From Candidatus Rokuibacteriota bacterium (lineage in GTDB: Bacteria > Methylomirabilota > Methylomirabilia > Rokubacteriales > CSP1-6), in contig JACPDG010000057.1 of assembly GCA_016184125.1 (NCBI GenBank), positions 11,485-75,484 on the forward strand: DNA of 64,000 nt, written 5' to 3'. Under the pieces are notes generated by a model. It did no database searches, had not been told where the DNA came from, and saw only the letters and a program-made list of their open reading frames with translations. Position numbers and translations under genes: made by a program. Each line of letters begins with the position of its first letter. The stretch's first letter is position 1. Positions 5,595 to 54,097 of this stretch are shown here, one piece after another.

Positions 5595-5682
5595 CGTGGC
5601 GTCCCTCGTGTCGGGCGAATCGCGGCGCGTGCGCGCAACTTGCCCATGATACCGCGAGGGCCATGACCGAATCGCGAACCCG

Positions 5683-5780
5683 AGGGGCGGCCCGGGTTCC
5701 CCGGGTGCGTCCGCGCACCCCCCGGGCCGCCTCCGAGCGTTGGGGGCTTGGGGGGCCATTTCCGGGCCCCCCATGCTATC
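5683..5780. repeat. GC-hairpin modular repeat copy R1 (reverse orientation)
   Basis: GGGTGCGTCCGCGCACCC hairpin + CCGAGCG-TTGGGGGCTTGGGGGG + G6CC-atttcc-GGC6 hairpin + CATG. Confidence 0.7.
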
Positions 5781-5790
5781 GGCCCGGCGT

Positions 5791-6762
5791 TCATCGCCGG
5801 TGCGGGCGCACGGCAAGCCTCAGGAGCTCGACGACGGCCCCGTGCGTGTCGACGCCAAAGCCATCGACCGTCGCTTCGCGCCGTCTCGTGACGCCGTCGA
5901 ACGCGCCGGCCTCGACGCACGCCTCGATGAGCCGGCGCTCGGTGTCCGGGGTGTGCAGCAGCGCCTCCCCGGTGGCGCGGGCGAGCGCAGCCACGATCCC
6001 GTACGCGCCCCAGTTCGACGTCGCGGCGACGACGAGGTGATCGACCCTCACGACGGACGCCGTGCGCGCGATCAATCCACCGGCCCGCAGGAGCCGCCGC
6101 CGGACGGTGCCCATCCCGATCTCGTTCCCGCCATCCCCGACACCAATGGTGACCGGCCGGTCCGATGCCGACTGCGCACGCCGACAAGCTGACTGCGCGG
6201 TGAATCGGCCGGACGCGGAGCCGGGAGGAGACGCCCGACGGTTGCCGGCGCCCTCGCGGCTCCCCGTCCGGCCACCTCCAGCGACGAGAAAGAGCTCGTC
6301 GATACGCCGATTCCAGGGCGTGATCACCACCCCGCGCAGGTTCATGTACTCGCCGGACGCCGCGCGACCCGGCCGCTCGACGGCGATCAGGTGCGTGGGC
6401 CGTGCGCGCGCCAGCAGCGACGGCGCGGCACCCTCACCCTCGGGATAGACCTCGATGTCGACCGGCTCGGCCAGCGCCTTCAGCGCCGCCTCGACGATCG
6501 GGACGTTATGGGGGTCCGTGACGTACGTGACCTGCGCACCGAGCCGGCGAAGCGCGCGACCGAGCACGGTGGCCCCCGGGGGGCCATCGGTCTCCGGCGT
6601 GTCGGCCGCGACGGTGAAGCCGGTCGCAATCAGAACGCGGCGCGCGGCGCGCAGCCCGGCGGCAGCCGCGAGCGCGCCGTGCGGGACGAAGAAGCCCGCG
6701 ATGCCACGCGCCCCGAGATCGAGCGCCAGGATGTGGTCGATCGGGTCGAAGTCCGCTCGCAC
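5791..6762 (-). CDS. Conserved hypothetical protein (DUF4392-like), with a low-complexity internal insertion
   Basis: A 323-aa ORF with GVGDGGNEIGMG and SNWGAYG motifs recalled as DUF4392-type. The internal stretch GGGRTGSREGAGNRRASPPGSASGR is low complexity. The family assignment is from memory. Confidence 0.45.
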   Translation of the reverse strand: MRADFDPIDHILALDLGARGIAGFFVPHGALAAAAGLRAARRVLIATGFTVAADTPETDGPPGATVLGRALRRLGAQVTYVTDPHNVPIVEAALKALAEPVDIEVYPEGEGAAPSLLARARPTHLIAVERPGRAASGEYMNLRGVVITPWNRRIDELFLVAGGGRTGSREGAGNRRASPPGSASGRFTAQSACRRAQSASDRPVTIGVGDGGNEIGMGTVRRRLLRAGGLIARTASVVRVDHLVVAATSNWGAYGIVAALARATGEALLHTPDTERRLIEACVEAGAFDGVTRRREATVDGFGVDTHGAVVELLRLAVRPHRR

Positions 6763-18815: not shown

Positions 18816-20191
18816 GCGAGCCGAGCGGTGACCGGGCCGAGGGGCCGGCCGCGCCCGAGGGGCGCGCGGCCGCGCCCGAGGGGCGCGCGGCCGCGCCCGA
18901 GGGGCGCGCGGCCGCGCCCGAGGGGCGCGCGGCCGCGCCCGAGGGCGTCGACGACCTCGGGCCGGGAGTCGGGGAGGCGCTGGAGCGCCTGCGGCCACGG
19001 GACCTCGCCGTGGGCATGCTCACGTACAACAACGCGGAGACGGCCGCGGCCGTCGCGCAGAGCGCGGTCCGGGGCATCGAGCAGTATCTTCCCGGCACGT
19101 CGGCGGTGATCCTCAGCGTCGACACCGGGTCCGTGGACGGGACGCCGGACACCCTCGTCGGGCCGTCGGCGGTGCCCGTCGTGTCGATGGTCCACCAGGC
19201 GCGGCTGGCCGAGCGTCTGACCGTCCCGTTCCACGGGGTACCGGGACGCAGCGAAGCGCTGCGCCGAACGCTCGCCGCGTCGCACCGGCTCGGCGCGCGG
19301 GCCCTGGTCCTGCTGGAGGCGGATCTCGCGTCGCCGCCACCCGAGTGGGTGGCGCGCCTGGCGCTGCCGGTGCTCGAAGACAAGGCCGGCTTCGTCGCGC
19401 CGGTCTACGCGCGGCACCGCTACGAGGGGACGATCACGAATCTCCTGCTGGCGCCGCTGATCCGCGCGCTCTACGGGCGCCGTGTCCGGCAGCCGTTCGG
19501 CGGCGAGCAGGCGCTGTCCGGGCGGCTCGTGGACCACCTGCTGATCCACCCGCAGTGGGACTGGCGGAGCGACGATCTGAGCGATGTCTGGGTGCTCGGC
19601 ACGGCCATCGCCGACGGCTTCAGCGTGTGGGAGACCTGGCTCGGCCGCCGGACGATCCGCTCGCGCGCCCGCACCACGGACCTGCCCTCGATGCTCGCGC
19701 AGACGCTCGGCGCCGTCTTCGCCGTCATGCACCGCCACCAGGACCTGTGGCTCGACGTCCGCGGCAGCGAGCCGCTGCCAGAAGTCGGCGAGCGCGTGCT
19801 GCCCGCGGTCGACCCCATCGAGGTCGACGTGCCCCGCATGATCGAGGGCTTTCGCCTGGGTCTCAGGGACCTCGTGCCGATCTGGGAGCACATCCTGGCG
19901 CCGGAGACGCTGGGCGACGTGCTGTCGCTCGAGACGGTCGACCCGGCGGAGTTCCGGTTCCCCGACGACGTGTGGGCGCGCGTCGCCTACGACTTCGCCC
20001 TCGGCTATCACTACGACGTCGTGTACCGCGACCACCTGCTCCGCTCGCTGGCGCCGCTCTACCTGGGCCGCACGGCAGCGTTCGTCCGGCAGACGCAGGG
20101 TCGCAGCGCAGAGGCCACGGAGGCGATGCTGGACGCCGTGGGCGCCGCGTTCGAGCGCCAGAAACCGTACCTGACGGACCGGTGGAGATGA
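18812..20191 (+). CDS. Glycosyltransferase (GT2/GT-A-like) with N-terminal (PEGRAAA)n repeat
   Basis: ATG overlaps the treT stop (ATGA). VGMLTYNNAETAAAV..SVDTGSVDGTPD resembles the GT2 PTYNE...DDGSTD region. The N-terminus is encoded by a perfect 21-bp tandem repeat. The precise family is unknown. Confidence 0.55.
   Translation: MSEPSGDRAEGPAAPEGRAAAPEGRAAAPEGRAAAPEGRAAAPEGVDDLGPGVGEALERLRPRDLAVGMLTYNNAETAAAVAQSAVRGIEQYLPGTSAVILSVDTGSVDGTPDTLVGPSAVPVVSMVHQARLAERLTVPFHGVPGRSEALRRTLAASHRLGARALVLLEADLASPPPEWVARLALPVLEDKAGFVAPVYARHRYEGTITNLLLAPLIRALYGRRVRQPFGGEQALSGRLVDHLLIHPQWDWRSDDLSDVWVLGTAIADGFSVWETWLGRRTIRSRARTTDLPSMLAQTLGAVFAVMHRHQDLWLDVRGSEPLPEVGERVLPAVDPIEVDVPRMIEGFRLGLRDLVPIWEHILAPETLGDVLSLETVDPAEFRFPDDVWARVAYDFALGYHYDVVYRDHLLRSLAPLYLGRTAAFVRQTQGRSAEATEAMLDAVGAAFERQKPYLTDRWR
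18845..18953 (+). repeat. Perfect 21-bp tandem repeat x5 (GCCCGAGGGGCGCGCGGCCGC) encoding (PEGRAAA)n at the N-terminus of the GT2-like gene
   Basis: Four identical 21-bp units plus one variant unit, read directly from the sequence. Confidence 0.9.
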
Positions 20192-22143
20192 AGGACCTCA
20201 AGAAGACCGTGATCATCGAGCACGTGGAACCCACGGTGGACGGCGGCCGCTACCCCGCGAAGCGCGAGGTCGGATGCGTCGTCGAGGTCACCGCGGACAT
20301 CTTCAAGGAGGGCCACGACAAGCTCCTCGCGTGGCTCAAGTACCGCCGCGCCGACGCGAGCGCCTGGGACGAGACCCCCATGCGTTTCGTCGACAACGAC
20401 CGCTGGGCCGGCCGGTTCAAGCTGACGCAGAACACGCGGTACGTGTTCACGATCGAGGCGGTCATCGACGTGTTCGGCTCCTGGCTCGCCGACCTCGAGA
20501 AGCGGCTCGCCGCCCGCCAGCCGGACCTCTCGAGCGAGCTGATCGAAGGCGCGGCCCTCGTCCGCGATGCGCTCCTCCGGGCGCGTGACGAGGACCGCGC
20601 GCGCCTCGAAGCGTACGCGGGCCGCATCGCCGCCACGGCGGACCAGCCGGCCGCCGCGGAGGCGGCGCTCGACCCCGCGCTCACCGTGCTGATGGAGGCG
20701 GCCGTGGACCGGACGGACGCCACGTGGTGCGACCGCGAGTTCGAGATCGTCGCGGACCGCGCGCGCGCGCGCTTCGCCGCCTGGTACGAGTTCTTCCCGC
20801 GCTCGGGGCAGGTTCCCGGGAAGCATGGCACGTTCCGGGACGCCGAGTTCCAGCTTCGCCGCGCCGCCTCCATGGGCTTCGACGTCGTGTACCTGCCACC
20901 GATCCACCCCGTCGGGCGGCGATTCCGCAAGGGCCGCAACAACGCGCTCGAGGCGCAGCCGGACGATCCCGGGAGCGTCTGGGCGATCGGGAGCGAGGAA
21001 GGCGGTCACGCCGCCGTCCATCCGGAGCTCGGGACCATCGAGGACTTCGATGCCTTCGTCGCCACGGCGCGCAGCCTGGGGCTCGAGGTCGCGCTCGACT
21101 TCACCATCCAGGCCTCGCCGGATCACCCGTGGGTCCGAGAGCACCCCGAGTGGTTCTTCCACCGCCCGGACGGCACGATCAAGTACGCCGAGAACCCGCC
21201 GAAGAAATACCAGGACGTGTACCCGCTCAACTTCAGCGGCCGCGACCCGGAGCCGCTCTGGCGGGAGATGCGGCGAGTCCTCGAGTTCTGGATCTCGCAC
21301 GGGGTCAAGAGCTTCCGCGTCGACAACCCGCACACCAAGCCCGTCCGGTTCTGGGAGTGGCTGATCCGGGACATCCAGACCGAGCACCCGGACGTGATCT
21401 TCCTGTCGGAAGCGTTCACGCGGCCGAAGATGATGAAGGTCCTCGCCAAGGCCGGGTTCACGCAGTCGTACACGTACTTCACGTGGCGCAACGAGAAGCA
21501 GGAGCTCATCGACTACTTCACCGAGATCACGTCCCCGCCGGTGAGCGATTACTTCCGCGGCAGCCTCTGGCCGAACACGCCGGACATCCTGCACGAGACC
21601 CTCCAGCGCGGCGGCCGTCCCGCGTTCAAGATGCGGCTCGTGCTCGCCGCCACCCTGTCCTCGCTCTACGGCATCTACTCCGGGTACGAGCTCTGCGAGA
21701 ACGTCCCGCGCGAGCCCGGCTCCGAGGAATACCTGAACTCCGAGAAGTACGAGCTCAAGACCCGGAACTGGCGGGAGCCGGGCAACCTGGTGCAGTTCAT
21801 CACCCGCGTCAACGCGATTCGCCGCGAGCACCCGGCGCTGCAGTGTTACAGCAACCTTCGCTTCTATCCGTCGCTGAGCCCGTCGGTGCTGTGGTACGGC
21901 AAGATGACGCCGGACCGGGACGACGTCGTGCTCGTGGCGGCGAGCCTCGACGTCAGCCAGACGCAGGAGACGCTGGTCGAGGTGCCGCTCGACGAGCTCG
22001 CGATGAGCGAGCACGAGCCGTACCTGATGCATGAGCTGCTGAGCGACAGCACGTGGGAGTGGCGCGGACGCCGCGGCTACGTGAAGCTCGACCCGCACGT
22101 GGACTCCACGCAGATCTTCGCCCTGCGCCGCCTGCGGGGATGA
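20188..22143 (+). CDS. glgE: Alpha-1,4-glucan:maltose-1-phosphate maltosyltransferase
   Basis: ATG overlaps the upstream stop (ATGA). [36 protein letters not shown] are typical of GlgE (GH13_3), about 651 aa. Confidence 0.9.
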
Positions 22144-22207: not shown

Positions 22208-23874
<1,667 letters not shown>

Positions 23875-23878
<4 letters not shown>

Positions 23879-24230
23879 CATCACGGGGGGACTATCGATG
23901 CCCCCCAAACCCCCCACGCTCGGAGCGCCCCGGCAAAGCCGTGGCGCTCCTCGACCACCGGATTCCTCCACGGACTCTGACATCATGGGGGGCCCCGACT
24001 TGGCCCCCCAACCCCCCCCACGCTCGGCGGCGGCCCGGGGAACCCGGCCCGCCCCTCGGGAATACGATCCGGCCACGGGCTCTGACATCATGGGGGGACT
24101 ACCGATGCCCCCCAAGCCCCCCGCACTCGGAGCCGTCCCGGGGGGTGCGCGGATGCACCCGTGGGGTGCGCGGACGCACCCGGGGAACCCGGGACGGCCC
24201 TCGACCACCGATGCCGTTCACGGGCTCTGA
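23875..24230. repeat. Tandem array of three GC-hairpin repeat units (R2) between treS and mak
   Basis: Three units, each CTGACATCA(C/T)GGGGGG-loop-CCCCCC-AA(A/G)CCCCCC-(A)CGCTCGG-..-CACGG(G/A)CTCTGAC. The third carries two GGGTGCGCGGA(T/C)GCACCC hairpins. Confidence 0.75.
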
Positions 24231-25623
24231 CGCGCTCGCCGCCTGGATCGCCGCACAGCGGTGGTTCGCCGGCAAGACGCGCCGCATCAGCGGGCTCGTC
24301 GTCGAGGACCGGGTGCCGGTCGCGGACGCGAGCGTCCTCGTGGTCGCGGTCGCGCTCGACGACGCGACCACGCAGCGGTACGCCGTGCCGCTCCGCGACG
24401 GACAGGCCATCGCCGACGCGCTCGACGAGGCGAGTTACGGTCGCGCGCTGCTCGACCTGATCGGGCGGGCCGATCGTGCGGCCGGTGAGTCAGGGGAGAT
24501 CGCCGGGCAGCCGACGCGAGCCTTCCCGCGGGATCTGCCTCCCGCCCCATCGGTGCGGCGGCTCGCCGGCGAGCAGAGCAACACCTCGATCGTGCTCGGC
24601 GAGCGTCTCATGCTGAAGCATTTCCGCCGCCTCGTGCCCGGACGCAATCCCGACGAGGAGATCGGCCGCTTCCTGACGGAGCGGACGTCGTTCACGCACG
24701 TCCCGCGGCTCGCCGGGCACCTCGAGTACCGCCGTGGCGCGGAGCGCTCCACGCTGGCCGTGCTGCACGAGCTCGCGACCGGCGCGGAGGACGGGTGGCG
24801 CTGGGTGCTCGACGAGCTGCGCGCCATGTACTCTGGGGTGGCGCCGGCGGCCGGCGAGCCGGACGACGTCGAGCGGCAGGCCGGTCCGACGCTCGACGCG
24901 CTTCGCCAGCTCGGCGCGGTCACCGCCGAGATGCACCTCGCCCTCGCGGGAGGCGTCGCGGATCCCGCGTTCTCACCGGAGCCGATCACGCCGACCGACG
25001 TGGCCGGCTGGTCGCGCGCCGTCGAGCGCCAGCTCGACGAGGCGTCGGGGGTCCTGGAGTCGAGCGGCGCGGCGGATGAGGCGTCCCGGGGAACGCTCGC
25101 GGTCCTGCGCGGCGAGCGTGCCCTGCTCTCCGCGGGGCTGATGGAGCTCGTGGGGCGCACGAAGATCCGCCACCACGGCGACTATCATCTGGGGCAGACG
25201 CTGTACCGGCCGCGCGAGCGGGAGTGGCTCGTGATCGACTTCGAGGGCGAGCCGCTGCGCCCGCTGGCCGAGCGCCGCGCGAAGCACGCGGCGCTCCGCG
25301 ACGTCGCCGGCATGCTGCGCTCGCTCGACTACGCCGCGGTGACCGCGATGCCGGCCGGCCTGGACGTCTGGGCGCGTGCGTGGGAGCGCGCCGCGTCAGC
25401 CGCGTTCGCCGCCGGGTACCGCGAGCGTGCCGCCGGCGCCCCGTTCCTGCCGGTGTCGCCGACGGCGTTCACGTCGGCGGTGGCCGTGTTCCTCGTGGAG
25501 AAGGCCGCGTACGAGGTCGTGTACGAGGCGGCTCACCGGCCCGCGTGGTTGCCGATCCCGCTCGGCGGGCTCACGCGGGCGCTCGCCGCGCTCACTGGCC
25601 GCCCTCGGGCTGGGGCGGCGTGA
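24211..25623 (+). CDS. mak: Maltokinase (maltose 1-phosphate synthase, Pep2/Mak)
   Basis: The N-terminus (AAWIAAQRWFAGKTRRI) and C-terminus (HGDYHLGQTL..IDFEGEP..RDVAGMLRSLDYAA) align with Mak/Pep2. The ATG start lies inside the terminal part of the upstream repeat unit. Confidence 0.8.
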   Translation: MPFTGSDALAAWIAAQRWFAGKTRRISGLVVEDRVPVADASVLVVAVALDDATTQRYAVPLRDGQAIADALDEASYGRALLDLIGRADRAAGESGEIAGQPTRAFPRDLPPAPSVRRLAGEQSNTSIVLGERLMLKHFRRLVPGRNPDEEIGRFLTERTSFTHVPRLAGHLEYRRGAERSTLAVLHELATGAEDGWRWVLDELRAMYSGVAPAAGEPDDVERQAGPTLDALRQLGAVTAEMHLALAGGVADPAFSPEPITPTDVAGWSRAVERQLDEASGVLESSGAADEASRGTLAVLRGERALLSAGLMELVGRTKIRHHGDYHLGQTLYRPREREWLVIDFEGEPLRPLAERRAKHAALRDVAGMLRSLDYAAVTAMPAGLDVWARAWERAASAAFAAGYRERAAGAPFLPVSPTAFTSAVAVFLVEKAAYEVVYEAAHRPAWLPIPLGGLTRALAALTGRPRAGAA

Positions 25624-26104
25624 ACGTCATCCGGAGGGCGAGCCAGCCCTCCTTGTCGAACTCGACGAGCAGCCCCGACCGGTAGAAGAAGACCGGCGTC
25701 TCGTGGTCCTTGCCCGCACGCGTCGGCACGCCCCATCCGATCACGATGGTGTTGCGCGTGAAGATGCCGGGGTTCGGCTCGAGCCGCATGATTCGCACGA
25801 CGTCCGGCTGATAGCCGGCCGCCGCGAGGAGGCCGAACTCGAACGTGAGCCGGCGGATGCCTGGCGGCGCGCGGTCGCCTTCGTAGACCCACTGCGTCGC
25901 GTCGTAGCTCTCGATCTTCAGGGCCTCGGAACGGGTCGGCTCGCCCCACCGCGCGCGGACCACCTCGATCGTGCTCTCGCCCGGAACGATCGCCCCCCAC
26001 TCCGCCGCGTGGGCAGGTCGAGGCGCAACGACCGCGACCAGGACGACGACGGACACGAGCAGCGCGGCGGACAGGACAACACGGTGACGCACGGTCCTCA
26101 TCAT
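25592..26104 (-). CDS. Secreted hypothetical protein (signal peptide)
   Basis: MMRTVRHRVVLSAALLVSVVVLVAVVAPRPAHA is an N-terminal signal, followed by a 170-aa ORF with no recognisable domain. Confidence 0.5.
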   Translation of the reverse strand: MMRTVRHRVVLSAALLVSVVVLVAVVAPRPAHAAEWGAIVPGESTIEVVRARWGEPTRSEALKIESYDATQWVYEGDRAPPGIRRLTFEFGLLAAAGYQPDVVRIMRLEPNPGIFTRNTIVIGWGVPTRAGKDHETPVFFYRSGLLVEFDKEGWLALRMTFTPPQPEGGQ

Positions 26105-26180
26105 GCCACGCTCCGGCCCAGAACATTTCAATGAACCCGGCGCGGGACGATCTGAACCGGATGCGCGCTAGAATCCCCTC

Positions 26181-26666
26181 ATGGCGACGGTCCGCGCCCG
26201 CTACCGCTTCACGGTCGACCACTTCCACCGCATGGCGGCCGCCGGCGTCTTCACCGAGGACGACCGCGTGGAACTGCTGGAGGGAGAGATCACCGTGATG
26301 AGCCCGATCGGCGACCGCCATGTCGCCTGCGTCGACTTCCTCAACGATCGTTTCGGCGAGGCCCTCCGCGTCCGCGCGCTCGTCCGCGTGCAGAGCCCGG
26401 TGCGGCTCGGTCCCCACAGCGCGCCCCAGCCCGACATCGCACTGCTGCGCCGGTCAGCCGACTACTACCGCGCCGTCCCTGCCACGCCACGAGACGTCTT
26501 CCTCGTCATCGAGGTCGCGGACGCTGACGTGGACTATCCCGACATGGCTGGGCCGGAAACTGATCCGCTTCCTCGGCTCCCTGGCCGTCGAAGCCGGGGG
26601 CCGTCGGCCGTCCAGAGCCCGATCGACACGATGCTCGGCGGCTCAGGCTTCGCGGGTCCTGCGTGA
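26181..26666 (+). CDS. Uma2-family (DUF820) putative endonuclease, with divergent or degenerate C-terminus
   Basis: FTVDHFHRMAAAGVF.EDDRVELLEGEI..MSPIGDRH..DIALL..VIEVADADVDYP matches the Uma2 pattern. The C-terminal 40 aa do not look canonical. Confidence 0.6.
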   Translation: MATVRARYRFTVDHFHRMAAAGVFTEDDRVELLEGEITVMSPIGDRHVACVDFLNDRFGEALRVRALVRVQSPVRLGPHSAPQPDIALLRRSADYYRAVPATPRDVFLVIEVADADVDYPDMAGPETDPLPRLPGRRSRGPSAVQSPIDTMLGGSGFAGPA

Positions 26667-26757
26667 CGCACCGAGATAAGCCGACGGGATAGGCTGACGG
26701 GATAGGCGGCGACGAGCTGCTTGCGAACACCCCGCCCTCAGCAGAATGAAAGCCTGA

Positions 26758-27243
26758 GTGATGGCGAGTCCCTACAGCGCACCGCGCCTCTGGGCGTACT
26801 TCCAGAAGCTCGAAGGCCGGCCGATGTTTCTCATGCTTCGAAGTCAATGGGAGACGGTCAAGATCCGGCTTGGCGAGCGTGTGCCTATCGAGATCTCGAC
26901 CACACCAATGGCGCGGCTTCTGACAGCGGCCGATATTGCGGCGGCGGTCGCGGAGCGGAAATCAGAGTACGAGGCGACGATCGCCATCTACCGTCGGGAC
27001 CCGAAGGATGCTGCCCACGCCGCGCCGATTAACGTGGACCGCTACCTCGTGTGGGAACGCATGCCCGATCATCGGGATTTGTTCGCCATGGTGAACGCCG
27101 CATCAACATCCGACAATGCCAATCTGCAGGGCTTCCTGGCGGACCACGTGTTTCTCGTGAAGGAAGGGTCTGGCGATGATCACTGGCTCCCGGCGGTCCC
27201 GATCGAGATCCGAGCTGTCATCGCGAAACGGAACCTGCGATGA
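26758..27243 (+). CDS. Hypothetical protein in lower-GC islet
   Basis: 161-aa ORF, protein-like composition, no recognised motif. Confidence 0.4.
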   Translation: MMASPYSAPRLWAYFQKLEGRPMFLMLRSQWETVKIRLGERVPIEISTTPMARLLTAADIAAAVAERKSEYEATIAIYRRDPKDAAHAAPINVDRYLVWERMPDHRDLFAMVNAASTSDNANLQGFLADHVFLVKEGSGDDHWLPAVPIEIRAVIAKRNLR

Positions 27244-27386
27244 GGGCCGCAGAACTTCGCGGTACAGCGGACCGGCGGGCTCGCGTTGCTCGCCCCCCGG
27301 CCGCTGACCGCGGCGTTGGGCAGCTTCTGCAAAGGCGAGGCGTCGGTGTCAACGTCGTATACTCGTGATACGGAGGCGATGCGCGC

Positions 27387-27596
27387 TTGATCACGTTCAA
27401 GGTCGAGATTGAACGAGAGGACGACGGCCGCTGGCTGGCGGAGGTCGTCGAACTGCCCGGTGTCCTCGTGTACGGCGAAACGCAGGAGGTGGCTCTGTCA
27501 AGGGTTCAGGCGCTTGCTCTCCGAGTCATTGCCGAGCGTCTGGAGCACGGCGAGGCTGAACCTGAACTGCTGAGCATCTCCTTCAACGCGGCGTGA
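27387..27596 (+). CDS. hicB: Type II toxin-antitoxin system HicB-family antitoxin
   Basis: The 69-aa ORF MITFKVEIEREDDGRWLAEVVELPGVLVYGETQEVALSRVQALALRVI matches the HicB/UPF0150 N-terminal fold. GGAGG lies 9 nt upstream of the TTG start. Confidence 0.7.
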   Translation: MITFKVEIEREDDGRWLAEVVELPGVLVYGETQEVALSRVQALALRVIAERLEHGEAEPELLSISFNAA

Positions 27597-27805
27597 GCGC
27601 CTGGCCGAGCAGCCGCGCTCGCCGGGTGCTGGCGGCGCTCCTGAGGATTGGCTGGGTGGTCAAGCGGCAATCCGGTTCCCACCGAACGTTATCCCGCACG
27701 GGATGGGCAGACGTCGTGTTCGCCTTCCACGACGACGAGGAGATCGGGCCCCGCATGCTGGCCCGGATCGCGAAGCGCACTGGTTTGCGACCCGAGGACC
27801 TGTGA
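27593..27805 (+). CDS. hicA: Type II toxin-antitoxin system HicA-family toxin (mRNA interferase)
   Basis: 70 aa. LLRIGWVVKRQSGSHRTLSRTGWADVVFAFHDDEEIGPRMLARIAKRTGL matches the HicA/YcfA pattern (G-W...GSH...P.H....K). The GTG start overlaps the hicB TGA. Confidence 0.75.
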   Translation: MSAWPSSRARRVLAALLRIGWVVKRQSGSHRTLSRTGWADVVFAFHDDEEIGPRMLARIAKRTGLRPEDL

Positions 27806-28004
27806 GCGCCCAACACTGCCGAACTACAGGATTCACCCCGCGGCCTTCGGGCGCGGGTGATCCTGGACGTTAGATGGCGGGGACAATGCTCGTGCCTTTG
27901 AGATCTGTCTTCTCGACGAGGCAGGCATCCTTCGTAACCGTCGGTTCGCTAGACGGCGCTGTCCGCCGCCTGGCCGCGGTCGTCAAACGAAGTGTCTGGC
28001 AGGA

Positions 28005-28301
28005 GTGGGCTTCGCCGCGTTGGCCATCTTTGTCGTCTTCTTCGCCGCATCGACAGTCTTTGGCGGCGTCCTCGTGACTTCAACGCGGCCGTTCGCTCAG
28101 AAGGTTGGCGCGGGCATGTTCATCGGCGCATTGATGAACGCAAGCGCTCTGGCCCTGTGGCGGTCCACGCAGCCCTTGACTGAGGAGGACATCTCGTTGG
28201 TGTCGGCGGGGATTCAGAAGGCGCTCGACACCCCGTCTAACAAGCCGTTCCACCTGCCGCCGGCCCTCGCTCCCTGCGGTCGCTCGGTCCGCCGCAGGTG
28301 A
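28005..28301 (+). CDS. Small putative membrane protein
   Basis: 98 aa with two hydrophobic helices (FAALAIFVVFFAASTVFGGVLV; GAGMFIGALMNASALALW). The reading frame is uncertain because overlapping ORFs exist. Confidence 0.3.
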   Translation: MGFAALAIFVVFFAASTVFGGVLVTSTRPFAQKVGAGMFIGALMNASALALWRSTQPLTEEDISLVSAGIQKALDTPSNKPFHLPPALAPCGRSVRRR

Positions 28302-28328
28302 ACGGCAGCGTTCGGCGCACCAAGCGGC

Positions 28329-28763
28329 GTGTCGACCGCTGACTTCCGGCTTCGGCCGACCGCGGCTCTGTGCAACCGCCGCGGGTGCTCACCGCGAGCG
28401 TTGAGCGTCGGGTCGAGCAAGGGCAATGAGGGTAATGATCGAATGGCGAACACGTGGATCACCGACATGAGGCACTATCTCGATGGCTCCGGAGCCTTGG
28501 TCGAGATGCCCGGGCCCGCTCTGAGCTTGGCGCTGTTCCTCGGAGCGATCGTGGCCTGGGTGACAAGCGGCCGGGCCGCTGGGGACGGACGGACCAACGT
28601 GCCCTGTCGTCGGAGCCCGGGTCGCAGCAGGTGCCCCGGCGAGATCGAAGCTTCGCTGGCATCGGACGGCGCGACGATCTCATGGCGCTGTCCGGTCTGC
28701 GGAGATAACGGCCTGACGCGAGGATGGGAGGGGACGCGTTGGGATCGGCGAGGAACCGGCTGA
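28329..28763 (+). CDS. Hypothetical protein with CxxxxxxxC...CxxC zinc-ribbon-like motif
   Basis: 144-aa ORF. The likely start is at the internal MANTWITDMRHYL (about 28443). It contains CRRSPGRSRC...CPVCG. Confidence 0.35.
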   Translation: MSTADFRLRPTAALCNRRGCSPRALSVGSSKGNEGNDRMANTWITDMRHYLDGSGALVEMPGPALSLALFLGAIVAWVTSGRAAGDGRTNVPCRRSPGRSRCPGEIEASLASDGATISWRCPVCGDNGLTRGWEGTRWDRRGTG

Positions 28764-28794
28764 CGTTCGGCGGGAGAACCCGATTCGATCGGGG

Positions 28795-30393
28795 CTAATA
28801 CCCGAGCGCCGCCCCGTCGCCGCGGGGATCGGCGCCACCCATGAGCGTCCCGTCACGCACGACGACTCCATGCGCGTGGCCGGCCCGGTGGAAGAAGTCC
28901 GGCCCGGGCTTGACGCGGTGACCGCGGCGCTCGAGCGACGCCAGCACCCGGCGTCCAACGCGCCGCTCGACGTGCACGGTGTCCGCCGGCTCGCCGGCGG
29001 AGAGCGAGCCGACGACGAACCGCGGGCGCTCGATGGCCTCCTGGATGTCGACGCCGTAGTCGAGGACGTTCGGCAGGACCTGCAGGTGGAACATCGCCTG
29101 GCCGTGGCCGCCCATCGTCGCGAACGCCATCACCGGGCGCGCGTCGCGGGTGACGATCGAGGCCGTCAGCGTGTGGAACGGCCGCTTGCGGGGTGCGAGG
29201 GCGGTCGGGTGCGACGCGTCCAGCGAGAAGTGGCGGCCACGGTTGTGCAGCAGCACGCCCGTGCCGGGAGGCACGACGCCGGAGCCCCACGCGTTGTAGA
29301 GGCTCTGGATGACGGCGACCACGTCGCCGCGACCGTCGGCGACGACGAAGCCGGTCGTGTCGCCCTCGGGATCGCCCCAGGTGTACGGCTGCGCCTTCGC
29401 GGGATCGTAGAGGGCCCGGCGCCGCCCTGCGTAGTCCTTCGAGAGCAGCGCGTCGACGGGGACGCGCACGTGCGCCGGGTCGCCGATCCAGCGGTCGCGG
29501 TCGGCGTAGGCGAGCTTCGCCATCTCGATCAGGACGTGCAGGTGCTCCGTGGAGCCGAGCCGCCGGCGGGCGACGGGAACGCCCTCGAGCAGGTTGAGCG
29601 CCAGCAGCGCCGCGAGCCCTTGCGTCGGCGGCGGCGTCTGGTAGACCGTGGCCCCTCGATACGTCGTGTGGATCGGCTCGCTCCACTCGCCCGTGTGCGC
29701 GGCCAGGTCGTCGGCCGTGAGGAAGCCGTCCGCCTCCATGCGCCGCGCGATCGCCTCCGCGATCCGCCCGCGATAGAAGAGGTCGGGTCCCTCCACGCCG
29801 AGGCCTTCGAGCGTCCGCGCGAGATCGGCCTGCACCAGGAGCTCGCCTGGCGCCGCAGGACGCCCTCCGGGCGAGAAGATCCGCCGCCATTCGGGATCGG
29901 TGATCGCCGGCGTCCACTCGGCGGCCGCCTGGCTGACGAGCGAGGTGGACGGGAAGCCGTGCTCCGCGTAGTGGATGGCGGGACGCAGCAGGTTTGAGAG
30001 CGGGCGCGAGCCGAAGCGCTCGAGGAGCATCGCCCATCCACGGACGCAGCCGGGAACGCTGACGGTCGCAGGCCCGAGGGTCGGCAGCTGGGTGTAGCCG
30101 CGACGCGCGGCCTCGCCGAACGTCGCGCGCGTCCCCGAGCGTCCGCTTCCGTTCAGGCAGTGAACCCGGCGCGTGGCCGCCTCGTAGTAGAGGCAGAACA
30201 GGTCGCCGCCCGCACCGCAGCAGTAGGGCTGCGTGACGGCGAGCACGGCGTTCGTCGCGACGGCGGCATCCGCGGCCGTACCGCCGGCCTTGAGCGTCCC
30301 GACGCCCGCCAGGGTGGCGAGAGGGTGCGCCGATGCGACGAGGCCTTCGCGTCCCATCGCGACCGGCCGGTGCGAGTATCCGATGTTCGGCAC
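28795..30393 (-). CDS. ggt: Gamma-glutamyltransferase family protein
   Basis: 532 aa. The TTGF-type autoprocessing region (GDTTGFVVADGRGDVVAVIQSL) and the overall GGT pattern are present. Confidence 0.85.
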   Translation of the reverse strand: MPNIGYSHRPVAMGREGLVASAHPLATLAGVGTLKAGGTAADAAVATNAVLAVTQPYCCGAGGDLFCLYYEAATRRVHCLNGSGRSGTRATFGEAARRGYTQLPTLGPATVSVPGCVRGWAMLLERFGSRPLSNLLRPAIHYAEHGFPSTSLVSQAAAEWTPAITDPEWRRIFSPGGRPAAPGELLVQADLARTLEGLGVEGPDLFYRGRIAEAIARRMEADGFLTADDLAAHTGEWSEPIHTTYRGATVYQTPPPTQGLAALLALNLLEGVPVARRRLGSTEHLHVLIEMAKLAYADRDRWIGDPAHVRVPVDALLSKDYAGRRRALYDPAKAQPYTWGDPEGDTTGFVVADGRGDVVAVIQSLYNAWGSGVVPPGTGVLLHNRGRHFSLDASHPTALAPRKRPFHTLTASIVTRDARPVMAFATMGGHGQAMFHLQVLPNVLDYGVDIQEAIERPRFVVGSLSAGEPADTVHVERRVGRRVLASLERRGHRVKPGPDFFHRAGHAHGVVVRDGTLMGGADPRGDGAALGY

Positions 30394-33443: not shown

Positions 33444-33475
33444 CGACGGCGGCCCTCACAGCCCCTGAACCACTC

Positions 33476-33560
33476 CCGAGCCGCGCCCCGGGTCCCCCGG
33501 GGCGCGTGCGAGCGACCGGGGGGCTTGGGGGGCATCGATAGTCCCCCCATGATGTCAGTG
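33476..33560. repeat. GC-hairpin repeat copy R3 (reverse orientation), overlapping the YHS gene stop
   Basis: ..CCGGGGGGCTTGGGGGGCATCGATAGTCCCCCCATGATGTCAG. Confidence 0.7.
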
Positions 33561-36368: not shown

Positions 36369-36383
36369 TACCCCCAGGGGGTA
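36369..36383. promoter_or_regulatory. Putative CsoR operator (TACCCCC-A-GGGGGTA perfect palindrome), about 40 nt upstream of csoR
   Basis: A perfect 7-1-7 GC-tract inverted repeat of the type bound by CsoR (compare the B. subtilis copZA operator TACCCTACGGGGGTA). Confidence 0.6.
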
Positions 36384-36464
36384 GTGTGCAGGACGCCGGC
36401 GGCGGCTGTCAACACCGCGAAGGTGAGACGGCGGTCCGGCTCACCGGAGGCTCAGCGCCCGTGA

Positions 36465-36835
36465 ACGAATCGCGTGGTCGAGGAGCGCCCCGGCGCTATG
36501 CCTGCCCTCCAGTCCGCCGAGGGGTGTCGAGAGGACCGCCCCGGGGGTTCCCGGGGCGGTTCCGAGCGCGGGGGGGTGTGGGGCATACGCGTTAACGTAA
36601 TATCGGCTTACGATGTGAATCCGCGGGAAACCCACGATTTCCGGGGTCCAGGTCCGCCAAGAGACCCCGAAAAGACGGGCATGGGGGTGTGGGGCGGGGT
36701 GTGGGGGGCCATGTCGGGGCCCCCAGGGACGCAGCGGGAGATCGAGGACCGCCCCGGGTTTCCCGGGGCGGTTCCGAGCGCGGGGGGGTATGGGGGGCCA
36801 TGTCGGGGCCCCCCATGATCAAAAGAGCGATGGCT
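36465..36835. repeat. Cluster of three or more degenerate GC-hairpin repeat units (R4) with an atypical AT-richer core
   Basis: A repeated CCGCCCCGGG(G)TTTCCCGGGGCGGTTCCGAGCGCGGGGGGGT(A/G)TGGGG(GG)CCATGTCGGGGCCCC motif occurs twice. The core between is GCATACGCGTTAACGTAATATCGGCTTACGATGTGAATCC. Confidence 0.65.
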
Positions 36836-37209
36836 GCTCGGCGCCCGCCGTGGTCGATCGCCGGCGGCGGGCCGACGGCTTCGCCGCCTTCCCGCTGTCG
36901 CTCGCACCCTTCACGCCGTCGGCCGGCGCCGGCCGCGGCAGCTTCCAGCCCTTGAGGCGCGCGATACGCTCGCCCTGCTTGATGGCGAGCAGGTCGACCA
37001 GGCGCGCGAGAGGGTTGCGCAGCAGACCGAGGTACTTCTCCCAGTACCGCGGTGTGAGGGCCAACGTTCGCATCTGCGCGAGCGCCAGCTCGAGCGCGAC
37101 GCGATCGCCCTTCCGCGCGGCCAGGCGCAGATCGCCGAGGAGCTTGTCTCGGCTGATCCGCGAGGGCGGCGTCCTCGGGACCCGCGCGGCCGGCCGACGG
37201 CGGCGGCTC
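36819..37209 (-). CDS. Small basic hypothetical protein, translationally coupled to the MetE-like gene
   Basis: The GTG start overlaps the upstream TGA (GTGA). About 130 aa (..ALELALAQMRTLALTPRYWEKYLGLLRNPLARLVDLLAIKQGERIARLKGWK..). Confidence 0.4.
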
Positions 37210-49173: not shown

Positions 49174-49219
49174 GTTCGAGCCAACAATCGACCGCCGGGC
49201 GGTCGATTGTTGCTCGAAC
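49174..49219. repeat. P1 palindromic element, copy 1 (46 bp near-perfect palindrome)
   Basis: GTTCGAGCCAACAATCGACCGCC-GGG-CGGTCGATTGTTGCTCGAAC. Confidence 0.8.
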
Positions 49220-49224
49220 TCTCA

Positions 49225-49271
49225 GTTCGTAGAAACCATCGGCCGCGAACGCGGCCGATGGTTTCACGAAC
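49225..49271. repeat. P2 palindromic element, copy 1
   Basis: GTTCGTAGAAACCATCGGCCGCG-AA-CGCGGCCGATGGTTTCACGAAC. It lies immediately after P1 copy 1, separated by TCTCA. Confidence 0.8.
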
Positions 49272-49375
49272 TCTCATCCGAGCAGATGACCGAGCCGCGG
49301 GGTCGTCTGTGCCGGAACGTGAACGATCATCCAGCGTGACCGCCGCGGCGACACCGCCAAGCGAGGCAAGAGGAC

Positions 49376-49576: not shown

Positions 49577-49603
49577 CGCGCGATCGCGCGCCGGTCGACT
49601 CGG

Positions 49604-49640
49604 GACGGCCCCCGGATTCCCCGGGGGCCGTCGCATTTCC
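49604..49640 (+). terminator. Rho-independent terminator after csp-2
   Basis: GACGGCCCCCGG-attc-CCGGGGGCCGTC is a 12-bp stem, followed by a short gcATTTcc tract. Confidence 0.55.
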
Positions 49641-50057
49641 GGGAGAGCGGGCAAAAAAGAGCCCCGACGGCTGCTGCGACGCTGCGCGATCCCTCATGGC
49701 GCGTCGCCCCGCGTGGTGAGCGCGGGAACCGTCGGGGCCGGTGGTGCCTGGTTCTCCCAGGCGGCCCACCAGGGACTCGTGTGGACCTTGCCCTAGGAGG
49801 CAACCACCTCACAGATCACCGTAGGGCTACACATCGACTGGATCACCTCCTATTCTCGGCAAGGGCGCCACGCGGGCCCAGGTCCCACTTACCCAGAACC
49901 GGATGCCGACTCCCGGCCCGGGGCCCGGTCACGTTCTGCCACCGGCGTCATTACCGGCGGGGACGCTCGAGGAGCGCTGTTGTCCGCTCCGACCGGTATT
50001 TGATTGCATCCTACACGAGCCCGTGGCGCCGCCAAACGAAAAAGTGGTGAGCGTGCG

Positions 50058-50441
50058 CTACTCGACGACGATCCGTCCGCGATTACGTTCCCAGAGTCCC
50101 GCGCCGATGCCCTGCACGCGCCGGATCTCCTGCGGTTTCTTGAAGACGCCGTGCGTCGTCCGGTACTGGACGATCTTCTCGGCGACCTTGCGGCCGATGC
50201 CGGAGAGCGTCATGAGCTGATCGACGCTCGCCGTGTTGATGTTCACGGGTGCCGAGGCGGCGACCTCGGACTTCGTGTCCGTCACGGCCGTCTTCTCGGT
50301 TCGAGCGACAATCGACCGCCGCGGCGGTCGATTGTCGCTCGAACTCTCCGGCGCGGCGGATGCAGCCGGCGTCAGCAGGAATGGCAAGATCGAGGCAACG
50401 ACGAGGGCGATCGCGAGCGACGAGCGAAGTGCGATGCGCAT
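50058..50441 (-). CDS. comEA: ComEA-like helix-hairpin-helix DNA-binding protein (signal peptide, linker, HhH)
   Basis: Signal MRIALRSSLAIALVVASILPFLLTPAASA, and C-terminal NINTASVDQLMTLSGIGRKVAEKIVQYRTTHGVFKKPQEI. The linker ESSSDNRPPRRSIVART is encoded by a P1 palindrome copy. Confidence 0.7.
   Translation of the reverse strand: MRIALRSSLAIALVVASILPFLLTPAASAAPESSSDNRPPRRSIVARTEKTAVTDTKSEVAASAPVNINTASVDQLMTLSGIGRKVAEKIVQYRTTHGVFKKPQEIRRVQGIGAGLWERNRGRIVVE
50299..50345. repeat. P1 palindromic element, copy 2 (inside the comEA-like ORF, in frame)
   Basis: GTTCGAGCGACAATCGACCGCC-GCGG-CGGTCGATTGTCGCTCGAAC. Confidence 0.8.
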
Positions 50442-50470: not shown

Positions 50471-50635
50471 ATGATCCGTTCACGTCCGAGTTCATCGGGG
50501 GACTATCGATGCCCCCCAAGCCTCCCAACTCGGAGCGCCCCGGGGGGGTGCGCGGACGCACCCGTGGTGCGCGGACGCACCCGCCAAAGCCGTGGCGCTC
50601 CTCGACCACCGAATTCCTTCACGGGCTCCGCGGCG
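50471..50635. repeat. GC-hairpin repeat copy R5 (full, two GGGTGCGCGGACGCACCC-type hairpins)
   Basis: TTCATCGGGGGACTATCGATGCCCCCCAAGCCTCCCAACTCGGAGCGCCCCGG GGGGGTGCGCGGACGCACCC GTGGTGCGCGGACGCACCC GCCAAAGCCGTGGCGCTCCTCGACCACCGAATTCCTTCACGGGCTCCG. Confidence 0.75.
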
Positions 50636-50816: not shown

Positions 50817-51122
50817 CTACTCCTCCGCGCGCTCCTCGAGCCGCGCCAGGTACTCGGCCCACTCGACCGGTACGAGGCTCTGCTTGCGTGTGTTGCAGTC
50901 CTTGCAGGACGGCACGACGTTGCCGCGCACCGACGTGCCGCCGCGGCCCAGTGGCACGATGTGGTCCATCGTGAGGGAGGTGGGGCCGACCGACCGGCGG
51001 CAGTAGTAGCAGACGCCGCTCGCGATGCGGCGCTTCCACCAGGCGCTCTTTCTGAGCTCGCGCGCCCGCGCCCGCTCGCGCCTGAGCTCGTCGGGATCGA
51101 TGGGCGCGTAGAACTCAGGCAT
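50817..51122 (-). CDS. HNH endonuclease (small stand-alone)
   Basis: CYYCRRSV..LTMDHIVPLGRGGTSVRGNVVPSCKDCNTRK is the HNH motif. 101 aa. The start overlaps the ABC-F 3' end by 8 nt. Confidence 0.7.
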   Translation of the reverse strand: MPEFYAPIDPDELRRERARARELRKSAWWKRRIASGVCYYCRRSVGPTSLTMDHIVPLGRGGTSVRGNVVPSCKDCNTRKQSLVPVEWAEYLARLEERAEE

Positions 51123-53596: not shown

Positions 53597-53712
53597 TCTG
53601 AAATCATGGGGGGACTATCGAAGCCCCCCAAGCCCCCCAATCGCTCGCACGCGCCCCGGGGGACCCGGGGCGCGGCTCGGCTATCGGGTTCGTTCACCGG
53701 CCCTCAGCTGCT
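53597..53712. repeat. GC-hairpin repeat copy R7
   Basis: TCTGAAATCATGGGGGGACTATCGAAGCCCCCCAAGCCCCCCAATCGCTCG..CCCCGGGGGACCCGGGG... Confidence 0.65.
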
Positions 53713-54031
53713 CCAGCACGCTGAACGCGTGGCGTACGGACTTCGCGGAGAGCGATCCGGACATCAGCAGCGCGATGTCGAGCGTCTCGGCGATCTCCTG
53801 GTCGGTCGCCCCCTGGTCGAGGACCTCCTCGACGCGATGGTCCACTCAGTCGAAACAGTTCTGCGAGACCGCGATCGCGAGCGCGGTCAGCTCCTTGTGC
53901 TTCTTCGACAGCGCCCCGTCGGCGTACACCTGCTTGCCGAGCTCGCCGAACGCGGCGAACACCTTCATCGGCGACGTGACGACGAGACCGTTGACGCGGC
54001 GCTTCTCCCGGTTGCGTTCGTGGACGTGCAT
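53681..54031 (-). pseudogene. AhpD/carboxymuconolactone-decarboxylase-family gene interrupted by an in-frame TGA at the CxxC site and a 1-nt frameshift (Sec candidate or pseudogene)
   Basis: N-terminal frame: ..HKELTALAIAVSQNCFD-TGA-VDHRVEEV. A -1 shift then gives LDQGATDQEIAETLDIALLMSG..RAGERTR-stop. Reconstructed, this reads C-F-D-[TGA]-V-D-H with the spacing of AhpD CxxCxxH. The RBS GAGAGGAGA precedes ATG 54031. Confidence 0.5.
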
Positions 54032-54050
54032 GGCTTGCTGTCTCCTCTCG

Positions 54051-54097
54051 GTTCGTGGAAACCATCGGCCGCGAAGGCGGTCGATGGTTTCGCGAAC
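54051..54097. repeat. P2-like palindromic element, copy 2 (hybrid P2 left arm / P1-like right arm)
   Basis: GTTCGTGGAAACCATCGGCCGCG-AA-GGCGGTCGATGGTTTCGCGAAC, followed by TCTCAG. It lies between the 54100..54606 gene end and the AhpD-like gene RBS. Confidence 0.7.

Follow-up and report, generated by a model that had tools for sequence, protein, structure and literature searches.

The boundary between the treS and mak genes in a 64,000-nt stretch of DNA from a Candidatus Rokuibacteriota bacterium (contig JACPDG010000057.1; the whole stretch is referred to here as the window) is occupied by tandem GC-rich hairpin units, which raises the question of what kind of repeat these units represent and how they came to lie there. 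An earlier note on the window had assigned them to a hyper-abundant, modular repeat family present at about 10 loci, with behaviour like that of repetitive extragenic palindromic (REP) sequences, bacterial interspersed mosaic elements (BIMEs) or mycobacterial interspersed repetitive units (MIRUs), and had suggested an active or recently active non-autonomous element or a bound structural motif. Our analysis supports the REP/BIME/MIRU-like behaviour, and we consider it likely that the family consists of small, non-autonomous DNA elements of Rokubacteria (Rokubacteriales, Methylomirabilota) that are mobilised in trans. Copies have been inserted precisely into otherwise conserved sequence, at a direct repeat of 3–6 bp containing TGA or TCA. 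Copies survive at gene boundaries, namely at stop codons and ATGA overlaps, at convergent gene ends and, in rare cases, in-frame within a gene, and copy number differs greatly among related genomes.

The family occupies 10 loci in the window, designated R1 to R10, with 13 full or partial units and one head-only copy. All ten loci listed in the earlier note contain it, according to a repeat finder, a 16-mer search and a covariance model. The repeat finder clustered the window copies into families D1 (8 copies), D2, D7 and D8. With up to two mismatches, the 16-mer CTGACATCATGGGGGG occurred 7 times in the window, compared with 0.02 expected, and Tandem Repeats Finder reported a 105-nt period with 2.6 copies at 23874–24141 as well as a 21-nt sub-repeat at 24137–24185. 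The covariance model, which was built from an alignment of 64 copies, recovered 12 window units at E ≤ 5e-4: 36741–36820 (−), 52837–52913 (+), 23879–23955 (+), 56409–56486 (+), 53602–53681 (+), 33475–33554 (−), 23981–24060 (+), 5679–5778 (−), 60796–60888 (−), 36528–36618 (−), 24086–24174 (+) and 50490–50575 (+). An extra match at 49599–49672, 3' of a cold-shock gene, covered only the second stem of the unit and is probably an ordinary hairpin outside the family.

Complete elements were also found in other genomes. A head-pattern scan of one genome per species matched at least 96 stretches. Most of the matches listed were in metagenome-assembled genomes (MAGs) of Rokubacteria/Methylomirabilota that carry the complete element (head hairpin, second C-run and second stem), and among these the element often ended in a GTTCACGGGCTCTGAG tail, as in the window. 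Because the complete element is present in dozens of such MAGs, the family is not a local duplication of one intergenic region, the outcome against which the earlier note had asked its proposal to be checked. Across dozens of Rokubacteria MAGs, the loci examined totalled 713 kb and gave 102 covariance-model matches. Density was approximately one copy per 5–7 kb in the window and the other Rokubacteria loci, and approximately one per 7 kb in three loci (L097–L099) that had been retrieved via TreS instead of via the repeat. The labels 'Acidoferrum', 'uncultured bacterium' and 'Anaeromyxobacteraceae', which would place three MAGs outside the clade, were unverifiable; the loci checked had a GC content of approximately 69–73%. 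The window itself belongs to the same clade: TreS (22208–23878) is 82–95% identical to proteins of Candidatus Rokubacteria/Methylomirabilota MAGs, and the ABC-F protein of the window is 100% identical to MBI2217987.1 from a Candidatus Rokubacteria MAG. Conservation of the element across phyla, as first read from contig matches, was therefore dropped.

The family corresponded to no entry in the resources searched, in keeping with the earlier note's statement that it was not a recognised one. Rfam gave no match at gathering score anywhere in the window, and at permissive thresholds the sole sub-threshold match was blv_FSE on the G6 hairpin, with 22 bits compared with the 34 needed. The family was not described in the literature searched, including the Rokubacteria genome paper, from which the word 'repeat' is absent. 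A window-specific hairpin loop had no match in a metagenome collection. The head pattern also matched ten IMG/VR contigs (L100–L109; 2.5–19 kb, 37–58% GC), all small, low-GC viral sequences. One 3-kb contig, L103, carries it at each end following a poly-A stretch, suggesting a G-run hairpin that terminates a small viral genome, possibly one of RNA. We rejected these viral matches as copies of the element: they resemble G-run hairpins at the termini of small viral genomes and are probably unrelated.

The unit measures approximately 75–145 nt. From its 5' end it comprises 1–6 variable nucleotides, CATG, hairpin 1 (G6-loop-C6, often longer by 1–2 pairs) and a 3-nt A-N-N linker; these are followed by a second run of C5–7, CGCTCG, hairpin 2 (12–13 bp), CTCGA and a tail of 14–23 nt that often reads ...GTTCACGGGCTC. 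The consensus of the 64 copies is NNA-CATG-GGGGG-[loop 7–11]-CCCCCC-A(A/T)N-CCCCCC-N(0–3)-CGCTCG-[G(N)GCGCCCCGG-loop-CCG(T/G)GGCGC(N)CC]-TCGA, followed by the 14–23 nt tail, which in one large subfamily reads ...CGATTCGTTCACGGGCTC. CATG precedes hairpin 1 in nearly all copies, and neither a GTAG nor a CGTC tag is present. The earlier note had divided the unit into lettered modules, and its view of a modular build was justified in that heads and second stems re-assort between copies: R3 and R7 share a stem 2 that is found with other heads in other MAGs. The CGCTC/GAGCG mini-palindrome that it placed in module (c) proved instead to be the 5' arm of the 12–13 bp stem, the 3' arm of which lies in module (e). 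Module (d), GGGTGCGCGGACGCACCC, is indeed present in zero to two copies, and its location can now be given as a fixed point in the loop of the (c)/(e) stem, where it forms an optional 21-nt hairpin. It occurs five times in the window, always within an element, and was not found in 109 other loci examined.

Both stems are backed by compensatory covariation. In the 64-copy alignment 92.7% of stem cells are paired, and changes on both sides were present in 11 of 21 pairs; the pair of columns 64 and 89, for example, reads A-U in 29 copies, G-C in 22 and C-G in 8. The covariation score was 0.132, compared with 0.046 in shuffled alignments (none of 500 reached 0.132), and sliding the partners yielded at most 0.046. 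Folded as RNA, single units were 1–4 standard deviations better than shuffled sequences. Among stem mismatches, A·C (32) exceeded G·T (13), which hints weakly that folding takes place in the complementary strand, although this evidence is soft because the copies share ancestry.

Orthologous sites with and without the element define the insertions. At treS–mak the site is empty in L098, L110 and L111, where ...GCCATCTGAC is followed directly by mak sequence with ATCTGAC at the junction, and in L097 the two genes overlap. In the window, 352 nt (R2; 23880–24231, + strand) are inserted exactly 3' of CTGAC (23875–23879), which contains the treS stop codon TGA, and themselves end in CTGAC. The insert consists of head-to-tail units of 102, 105 and 145 nt (23880–23981, 23982–24086 and 24087–24231), each ending in CTGAC. 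The three tandem units of the earlier note were thus confirmed, whereas the 3' boundary of the array, set there at 24230, needed extension to include the last CTGAC at 24227–24231. Unit 3 contains two module-(d) hairpins (24144–24159 and 24165–24180), and mak starts at an ATG within the tail of this unit (24211), as had been noted; the original mak ATG is lost. At this stop codon, L099 carries a single unit from a different subfamily, flanked by TGA...TGA, and L112 has a decayed 97-nt insert after ATCTGAC; the gap in the closest relative is 87 nt. Insertion restores the target at the end of the new copy, which accounts both for head-to-tail arrays and for the fact that the conserved ATCTGAC at the treS end has been used repeatedly and independently. 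The array was also considered as an amino-terminal extension of Mak and rejected: the mak frame is open across the array, but the array measures 352 nt, it offers no in-frame upstream start, and open frames are expected at such a GC content.

Other boundaries in the same region gave similar pictures. The YHS-domain and DUF2889 genes share an ATGA overlap in L110 and L112, compared with R3 in the window. Between glgE and treS, L097 and L098 carry an antisense copy, bounded in L098 by ATGA...ATGA; the window has a 75-nt spacer without a full unit, L099 a 7-nt spacer and the two closest relatives a 4-nt gene overlap, the last judged from gene coordinates only. Other tandem repeats fill these same operon spacers in other Rokubacteria genomes (L110 and L111), such as a 68-nt duplicated unit between glgE and treS in L110 (9831–10000).

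R6 (52835–52940, + strand; covariance model score of 78.3 bits) is a 98-nt element at 52839–52936 between GTGA repeats at 52835–52838 and 52937–52940. The earlier note had described the copies as flush against genes, which applies to most of them but not to this one: R6 lies in-frame and antisense inside the ABC-F gene (51115–53181, − strand), to which it adds 34 residues, TEPVNQAGDRGAPRLGRGAPSAGGLGGFDGPPMI (TEPVNQ...GPPMI), between ...PHTV and TVLGEAL.... The insert is absent from five homologues, one of them 90% identical. In the nearest relative (JGI 3300056388), R6 is absent, with an ABC-F protein of 654 residues compared with 688, and the R7 site (between the CMD and PNPOx genes) is empty with a gap of 2 nt, as read from gene coordinates; R5 is probably absent as well (224-nt gap, compared with 377 nt in the window), and R8 is probably present (92-nt gap). 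Three syntenic loci of 21.7 kb, with TreS proteins 82–84% identical, yielded one weak model match in 65 kb, compared with 7 units in the syntenic part of the window. This near absence indicates that the expansion in the window was lineage-specific and recent.

The loops of hairpin 1 add to this picture. A loop variant, ACTATCGA(A/T)G, is present in 7 window copies and in no other genome examined, and a loop ACTATCGAW was, as module (d) was, restricted to the window among the loci examined. Individual lineages, including that of the window, show recent bursts. The empty and filled orthologous sites together with this window-specific subfamily support the earlier suggestion of an active or recently active non-autonomous element.

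Within the boundaries set by the empty sites, the element lacks terminal inverted repeats. What its two ends have in common is a direct TCAYGGG motif; those of R6, TCATGGGGGG... and ...CACGGGCTCG, share no inverted repeat. The flanking direct repeats are TCTGAC for R2, GTGA for R6, GTTCAT for R8, CTGA for R10, TGA for L099 and ATGA/TCAT for L098. They are 3–6 bp long, all contain T-(G/C)-A, and they differ among copies of one genome; the earlier note had proposed looking for target-site duplications in the form of CTGAC or TGAC direct repeats. In a position-restricted test, the same 5-mer was found on both sides in 8 of 67 single copies, compared with 1.7 ± 1.2 in permuted pairs (0 of 500 permutations), and an unrestricted longest-common-substring test detected an excess for tandem arrays only. 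Because the right end varies with the left flank, we read the flanking repeats as true target duplications and not as fixed element ends.

Short flanking duplications that contain T-N-A, a size below 200 nt and a high copy number would also be expected of classical miniature inverted-repeat transposable elements (MITEs) derived from a DDE insertion sequence (for instance, an IS5/IS1031-like one with a TNA target) that duplicates 3–5 bp of its target. We consider this origin very unlikely, given that DDE transposases need inverted ends and the ends of this element share, if anything, the direct motif. Another possible, though doubtful, mechanism for a mobile family is that the copies derive from IS200/IS605-type or REP-associated tyrosine transposase (RAYT)/REP-type elements, moved as single-stranded DNA by an HUH Y1 transposase and inserted 3' of a TGA-containing tetra- or pentanucleotide without duplication, the right end mimicking the target. 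Hairpins near both ends with no terminal inverted repeats, head-to-tail arrays (expected if the right end regenerates the target), the excess of A·C over G·T mismatches, with its hint of one folding strand, and a conserved tetranucleotide, CATG, before hairpin 1 that parallels the GTAG/CGTC tag of REPs (PMC3733652) all point in this direction. A TGA- or TCA-containing flank is always present, but copies of one genome differ at the right end in step with the left flank (TCTGAC, GTGA, GTTCAT), as expected of a true duplication and not of a fixed element end. In addition, the window loci are of mixed orientation, six on the + and four on the − strand, and thus lack a strand bias; no inverted REP pairs were present, and no Y1 gene was found in 0.85 Mb of loci.

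The context of copies across all loci shows where they come to rest. A stop-type triplet lay 0–4 nt upstream of CAT in 69 of 100 copies and at exactly 3 nt in 37, the background being 1.6% per position. In 41 of 74 copies, a long open reading frame (ORF) on the same strand with high GC content at third codon positions ended no more than 40 nt upstream, in 20 of the 41 at a distance of 3 nt. With respect to flanking genes, 27 copies were sense co-directional, 18 convergent, 15 antisense co-directional and 1 divergent; the family therefore avoids promoters and favours gene ends, with no fixed transcriptional orientation. Among 113 copies examined, R6 was the only clear in-frame genic copy, the other flagged case (L044) belonging to an Actinomycetota family.

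Such positions could also mean that the copies are primarily host-functional, REP-like structural motifs, such as terminators, 3'-end protectors, translation modulators or protein-binding sites, maintained by selection and with mobility only incidental. The avoidance of divergent promoter regions (1 of 61), the frequent placement of the head exactly 3 nt past a real stop codon (20 of 41 cases), the compensatory changes that keep both hairpins across many genomes and the retention of structure in old orthologous copies all speak for a host function. We nevertheless judge this explanation unlikely, because syntenic relatives manage without copies in the same operons, one copy is translated inside ABC-F and orientation to transcription is not fixed (27 sense, 15 antisense). 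Neither hairpin is followed by a T-run (a U-tract in the transcript), a terminator scan of one cluster (36380–36900) called no candidate site, and a terminator between the formerly overlapping treS and mak would be harmful. The bound structural motif of the earlier note thus stands as a possible secondary role and cannot explain the in-frame genic insertion or the near absence from syntenic relatives.

The association with stop codons raises the further idea of MIRU-like intercistronic minisatellites, which would sit at start/stop overlaps with a small ORF keeping the flanking genes translationally coupled. MIRUs have been described as inserting at start codons, with coupling at −4 (PMC12548453). 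Three sites at which the element entered an ATGA or TGA junction, tandem direct units and the ATG of CATG lying 4 nt after the upstream stop in many copies resemble this arrangement. However, the ATG-initiated frame ended in the tail zone no more often than the others did (20, compared with 13 and 18, of approximately 83), unit lengths are generally not multiples of 3, a third of co-directional copies are antisense (15 of 42), and the element has no sequence similarity to MIRUs and a host in another phylum. A MIRU-like identity is accordingly extremely unlikely. A recoding signal (readthrough, frameshifting or a selenocysteine insertion sequence) was considered as well, with reference to the G6 hairpin 6–7 nt after TGA and the weak blv_FSE match, and was rejected: TAG and TAA also serve as the nearby stop-type triplet, antisense and intragenic copies exist, and relatives lack the element.

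For the family as trans-mobilised DNA, we suggest that an enzyme encoded elsewhere would recognise the two hairpins and their single-stranded flanks (CATG, A-N-N-C6 and CGCTCG), most likely in a folded, single-stranded form, as with HUH/Y1 enzymes. A TGA/TCA target combined with selection against disruption of promoters and genes would leave copies at gene ends, survival being expected mainly where a TGA/TCA duplication is harmless, such as at stop codons and ATGA overlaps. Any role of the hairpins in intercistronic RNA or DNA would be secondary.

Several observations weigh against this interpretation. Searches with phmmer of the ORFs in 0.85 Mb of loci, with E. coli RayT and an approximate IS608 TnpA sequence as queries, found no RAYT or IS200-type TnpA homologue, a sample that is far too small to exclude one given genomes of 6–8 Mb; a Pfam scan of approximately 30 window ORFs likewise found no transposase. 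The flanking-repeat signal is visible in only approximately 12% of single copies, and at 3–4 bp a fixed element end cannot be proven here to be distinct from a true duplication. To our knowledge, no well-characterised bacterial transposition mechanism gives duplication-like flanks without terminal inverted repeats. The main loop types, CCCCGANATGG, CCTCGAAGGG and CTCCGGGCG, are each common to many assemblies, and identity is barely higher within an assembly (0.747) than between assemblies (0.702), which together indicate that the family and its subfamilies are old. Finally, old orthologous copies (L049/L080 and L097/L098) keep their hairpins, which could reflect host-level selection on structure. 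Two candidate mobilising genes were rejected. A small HNH gene beside R5 is conserved at the same place in a relative that probably lacks R5, and is therefore not linked to the element, and an ORF between inverted copies in L035 proved to belong to an ftsZ-pgeF-yggS cluster.

The remaining window copies show the same preference for gene ends. In sense orientation, copies follow the stops of the GLUCM-like, treS, YHS, enoyl-CoA hydratase and dnaB genes (Pfam assignments), and in antisense orientation they lie between HhH-GPD and GBBH_N/DUF971 genes and between a CMD-like ORF and PNPOx; as in other loci, they are single or arranged in head-to-tail arrays. R1 (5679–5782, − strand; 55.6 bits) has the head CATG-G6-CCCGGAAATGG-C6 and one module-(d) hairpin (5704–5719) in the stem-2 loop, and is co-directional with its two neighbours (Pfam), a GLUCM-like gene (5791–6762, − strand) whose stop lies on one side and an aminotransferase gene whose start lies on the other. 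R3 (33455–33558, − strand; 68.4 bits) separates the DUF2889 gene from the YHS-domain gene, which terminates at the TGA of CTGAC; the locus had been placed at 33476–33560, and the copy is there but extends to approximately 33455 when its tail is added. R5 (50481–50635, + strand), with a mutated head CATCGGGGG and module-(d) hairpins at 50547–50562 and 50566–50581, lies between the start of a ComEA-like gene and the stop of the small HNH gene. R7 (53597–53712, + strand) separates the start of the PNPOx gene from an upstream ORF (53694–54065, − strand), the stop of which is the TCA of the R7 tail motif GTTCAC. The ending of this ORF in R7 agrees with the earlier note, but its label as AhpD-like is supported only indirectly, by a weak CMD Pfam match on the orthologue in a relative, the window ORF itself giving none.

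R8 (56407–56515, + strand) makes up the whole spacer between the stop of the HhH-GPD gene (56508–56510) and the start of the GBBH_N/DUF971 gene (56406), is antisense to both and has GTTCAT on both sides. R9 (58286–58332, + strand) is the head-only copy, with a weak covariance-model score; its G6-ACTATCGAAG-C6 hairpin is lengthened by GACGTC arms and begins 3 nt past the enoyl-CoA hydratase stop codon. R10 (60775–60896, − strand; 53.7 bits) has an expanded C-run region and lies directly 3' of the dnaB stop (60894–60896). The stops of the YHS, alkA (the HhH-GPD gene by Pfam) and dnaB genes are thus within element ends, as had been proposed. The dnaB gene (60894–63983) contains an intein with a LAGLIDADG homing-endonuclease domain (Pfam Intein_splicing and LAGLIDADG_3).

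The cluster at 36465–36835 does hold repeats, specifically one intact unit and one composite or interrupted unit. The intact unit, R4a (36741–36824, − strand), upstream of csoR, has the top model score in the window (88.1 bits) and a loop type, CCCCGACATGG, that is common to many other genomes. The composite, R4b (36465–36735, − strand), comprises a degenerate head at approximately 36690–36735, a stem 2 at 36528–36583 (model match 36528–36618, 35.3 bits) and an extra 3' half-unit with a GTTCACGGGCGCTGAG tail. Its inner segment (approximately 36590–36690) is approximately 100 nt of lower GC content with CCCCACACCCCC direct repeats at its borders, and had no relative among the loci examined and no Rfam match. 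Upstream of csoR, relatives have a TTGACA...ATAAT promoter and an ATACCCC-N-GGGGTAT operator of the CsoR type, neither of which was recognisable in the upstream region of the window (the cluster around 36590–36690); the repeats may therefore have remodelled the csoR control region. In L111, a repeat of approximately 46 nt, CCCCCTCCAAACCTCCCC..., lies upstream of csoR at approximately 20700–21000.

Other repeats are present nearby. A second, unrelated window family is a 47-nt near-perfect palindrome, GTTCGAGCaACAATCGACCGCC..GGCGGTCGATTGTtGCTCGAAC with a GTTCGTgGAAACCATCGGCCGCG.. variant, found at 49174–49220, 49226–49272, 50299–50345, 54052–54098 and 58342–58388. It has TCTCA-like direct-repeat flanks and is MITE-like with inverted ends, and its core 12-mer was absent from all other loci examined. 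The copy at 50299–50345 is in-frame inside the ComEA-like gene (50058–50441, − strand), whose product has 127 amino acids, compared with 110 in the nearest relative; the extra 17 codons correspond to 47 + 4 nt. At 18846–18945, the spacer between two co-directional glycosyltransferase genes is filled by 4.8 copies of a perfect 21-nt tandem repeat, CGGCCGCGCCCGAGGGGCGCG, whose units are each a 7-bp hairpin; in L110 this spacer measures 20 nt. The repeat shares with module (d) the 21-nt period and approximately 74% similarity. Approximately 2.8 kb of lower-GC DNA (0.656) at approximately 26012–28808, which includes a gene for a putative endonuclease of the Uma2 family (26181–26666), is absent from the syntenic L098 and L110–L112 and is likely an inserted island.

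The head module is not confined to this family but also stands at the head of other repeat families, in several Actinomycetota MAGs and in a single Melainabacteria MAG of low GC content. The Actinomycetota repeat (L003, L013, L017, L036, L037, L043, L044, L055, L062, L070, L081 and L085) is a different one of approximately 75 nt, G7-ACGA-C7-AGA-C8-GCT-CAT-G7-CTGCCCG-C7-ATA-C6, often followed by further ATACCCCCC-TGG units; in L044 it is in-frame inside a long ORF. In the Melainabacteria MAG (approximately 44% GC; L009, L027, L028 and L031), GGCTAGGGCTT-CATGGGGGG-hairpin-CCCCCC-ACA-CCCCCC is followed by a second hairpin, TTAAGGGGC...GCCCCCTTAA; this repeat has the architecture of the Rokubacteria element in an AT-rich genome and gave no covariance-model match. 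In copies not chosen by the search pattern, the linker is 3 nt long and begins with A in 22 of 27, and run lengths tend to match (6,6,6 in 13 and 5,5,5 in 4). The order of purine, pyrimidine and pyrimidine runs would permit an intramolecular triplex or two alternative hairpins, which we offer as an idea and not a result. We regard it as speculative and rather improbable that the element is one member of a class of miniature mobile elements that spans phyla and shares a CATG-G(n)-loop-C(n)-A-N-N-C(n) module, with an intramolecular C+·G-C triplex or two-hairpin switch and an unrecognised recombinase making TGA/TCA-centred duplications of 3–6 bp without inverted ends.

If mobile, the family would offer a clean natural example of selfish DNA colonising a gene-dense genome with little damage. 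Because the element duplicates the stop triplet or the ATGA overlap, the upstream gene keeps its stop, and the downstream gene keeps or regains a start. The element can even persist as a 34-residue insertion in an essential-type ATPase, and it pulls apart formerly overlapping, translationally coupled genes. Two covarying hairpins, combined with short duplications that depend on the site and an absence of inverted ends, would point to a non-textbook mobilisation mechanism. Two contigs of close relatives (carrying P0002; JGI 3300043331 and 3300056388) end shortly past treS, consistent with the element breaking metagenome assemblies. Rokubacteria, which are uncultured, live in soils and the subsurface; their genomes are large, and the non-coding share of 8–17% is unusually high (PMC5712423). 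This family and at least two further small repeat families nearby may account for part of that share.

To place the family among known systems, we compared it first with REP sequences, defined as imperfect palindromes of 20–40 nt with a conserved GTAG or CGTC tag at one end (PMC3733652). The element resembles REPs and BIMEs in its GC-rich hairpins with a conserved tetranucleotide beside the stem, its mosaic module combinations, its conservation across related species and its hundreds of extragenic copies, which lie mostly at gene 3' ends or within operons and seldom in promoters. It differs in its CATG tag, in units of approximately 100 nt with two different hairpins and a C-run, in copies that are single or head-to-tail instead of alternating inverted pairs (as in REPINs and BIMEs) and in precise insertions with short flanking duplications; moreover, no RAYT was found in the 0.85 Mb. 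With MITEs it shares target-site duplication (R2, R6, R8, L099 and L098) but not terminal inverted repeats. GC-rich units of 40–100 nt, tandem direct arrays in operons, insertion at stop/start junctions and flanking genes that abut or overlap the ends recall MIRUs, from which the family is separated by the lack of a conserved coupled mini-ORF, both orientations, a much higher density and two covarying hairpins.

Rickettsia palindromic elements are reportedly small palindromic repeats that lie in-frame in protein genes and are translated as an extra surface peptide. R6 in ABC-F is such an in-frame palindromic repeat translated as an extra peptide, but insertion of this kind is exceptional here (approximately 1 of 113), the bulk of copies being at gene boundaries. 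Palindromic elements derived from IS200/IS605, which are miniatures without terminal inverted repeats (for example, Nezha), have subterminal hairpins, insert at a short specific sequence and may form arrays; the present flanks, in contrast, behave like true site-varying duplications, with no strand bias and no TnpA found in the 0.85 Mb. BOX elements of Streptococcus pneumoniae are also modular, with a variable number of internal modules in an otherwise constant element, as with the 0–2 copies of module (d), but have unrelated sequence, an AT-rich host and another module logic. The family thus fails a defining feature of each known system where such a feature could be tested. It fits no named repeat family and is apparently undescribed, and it belongs to the well-populated class of bacterial miniature repeats.

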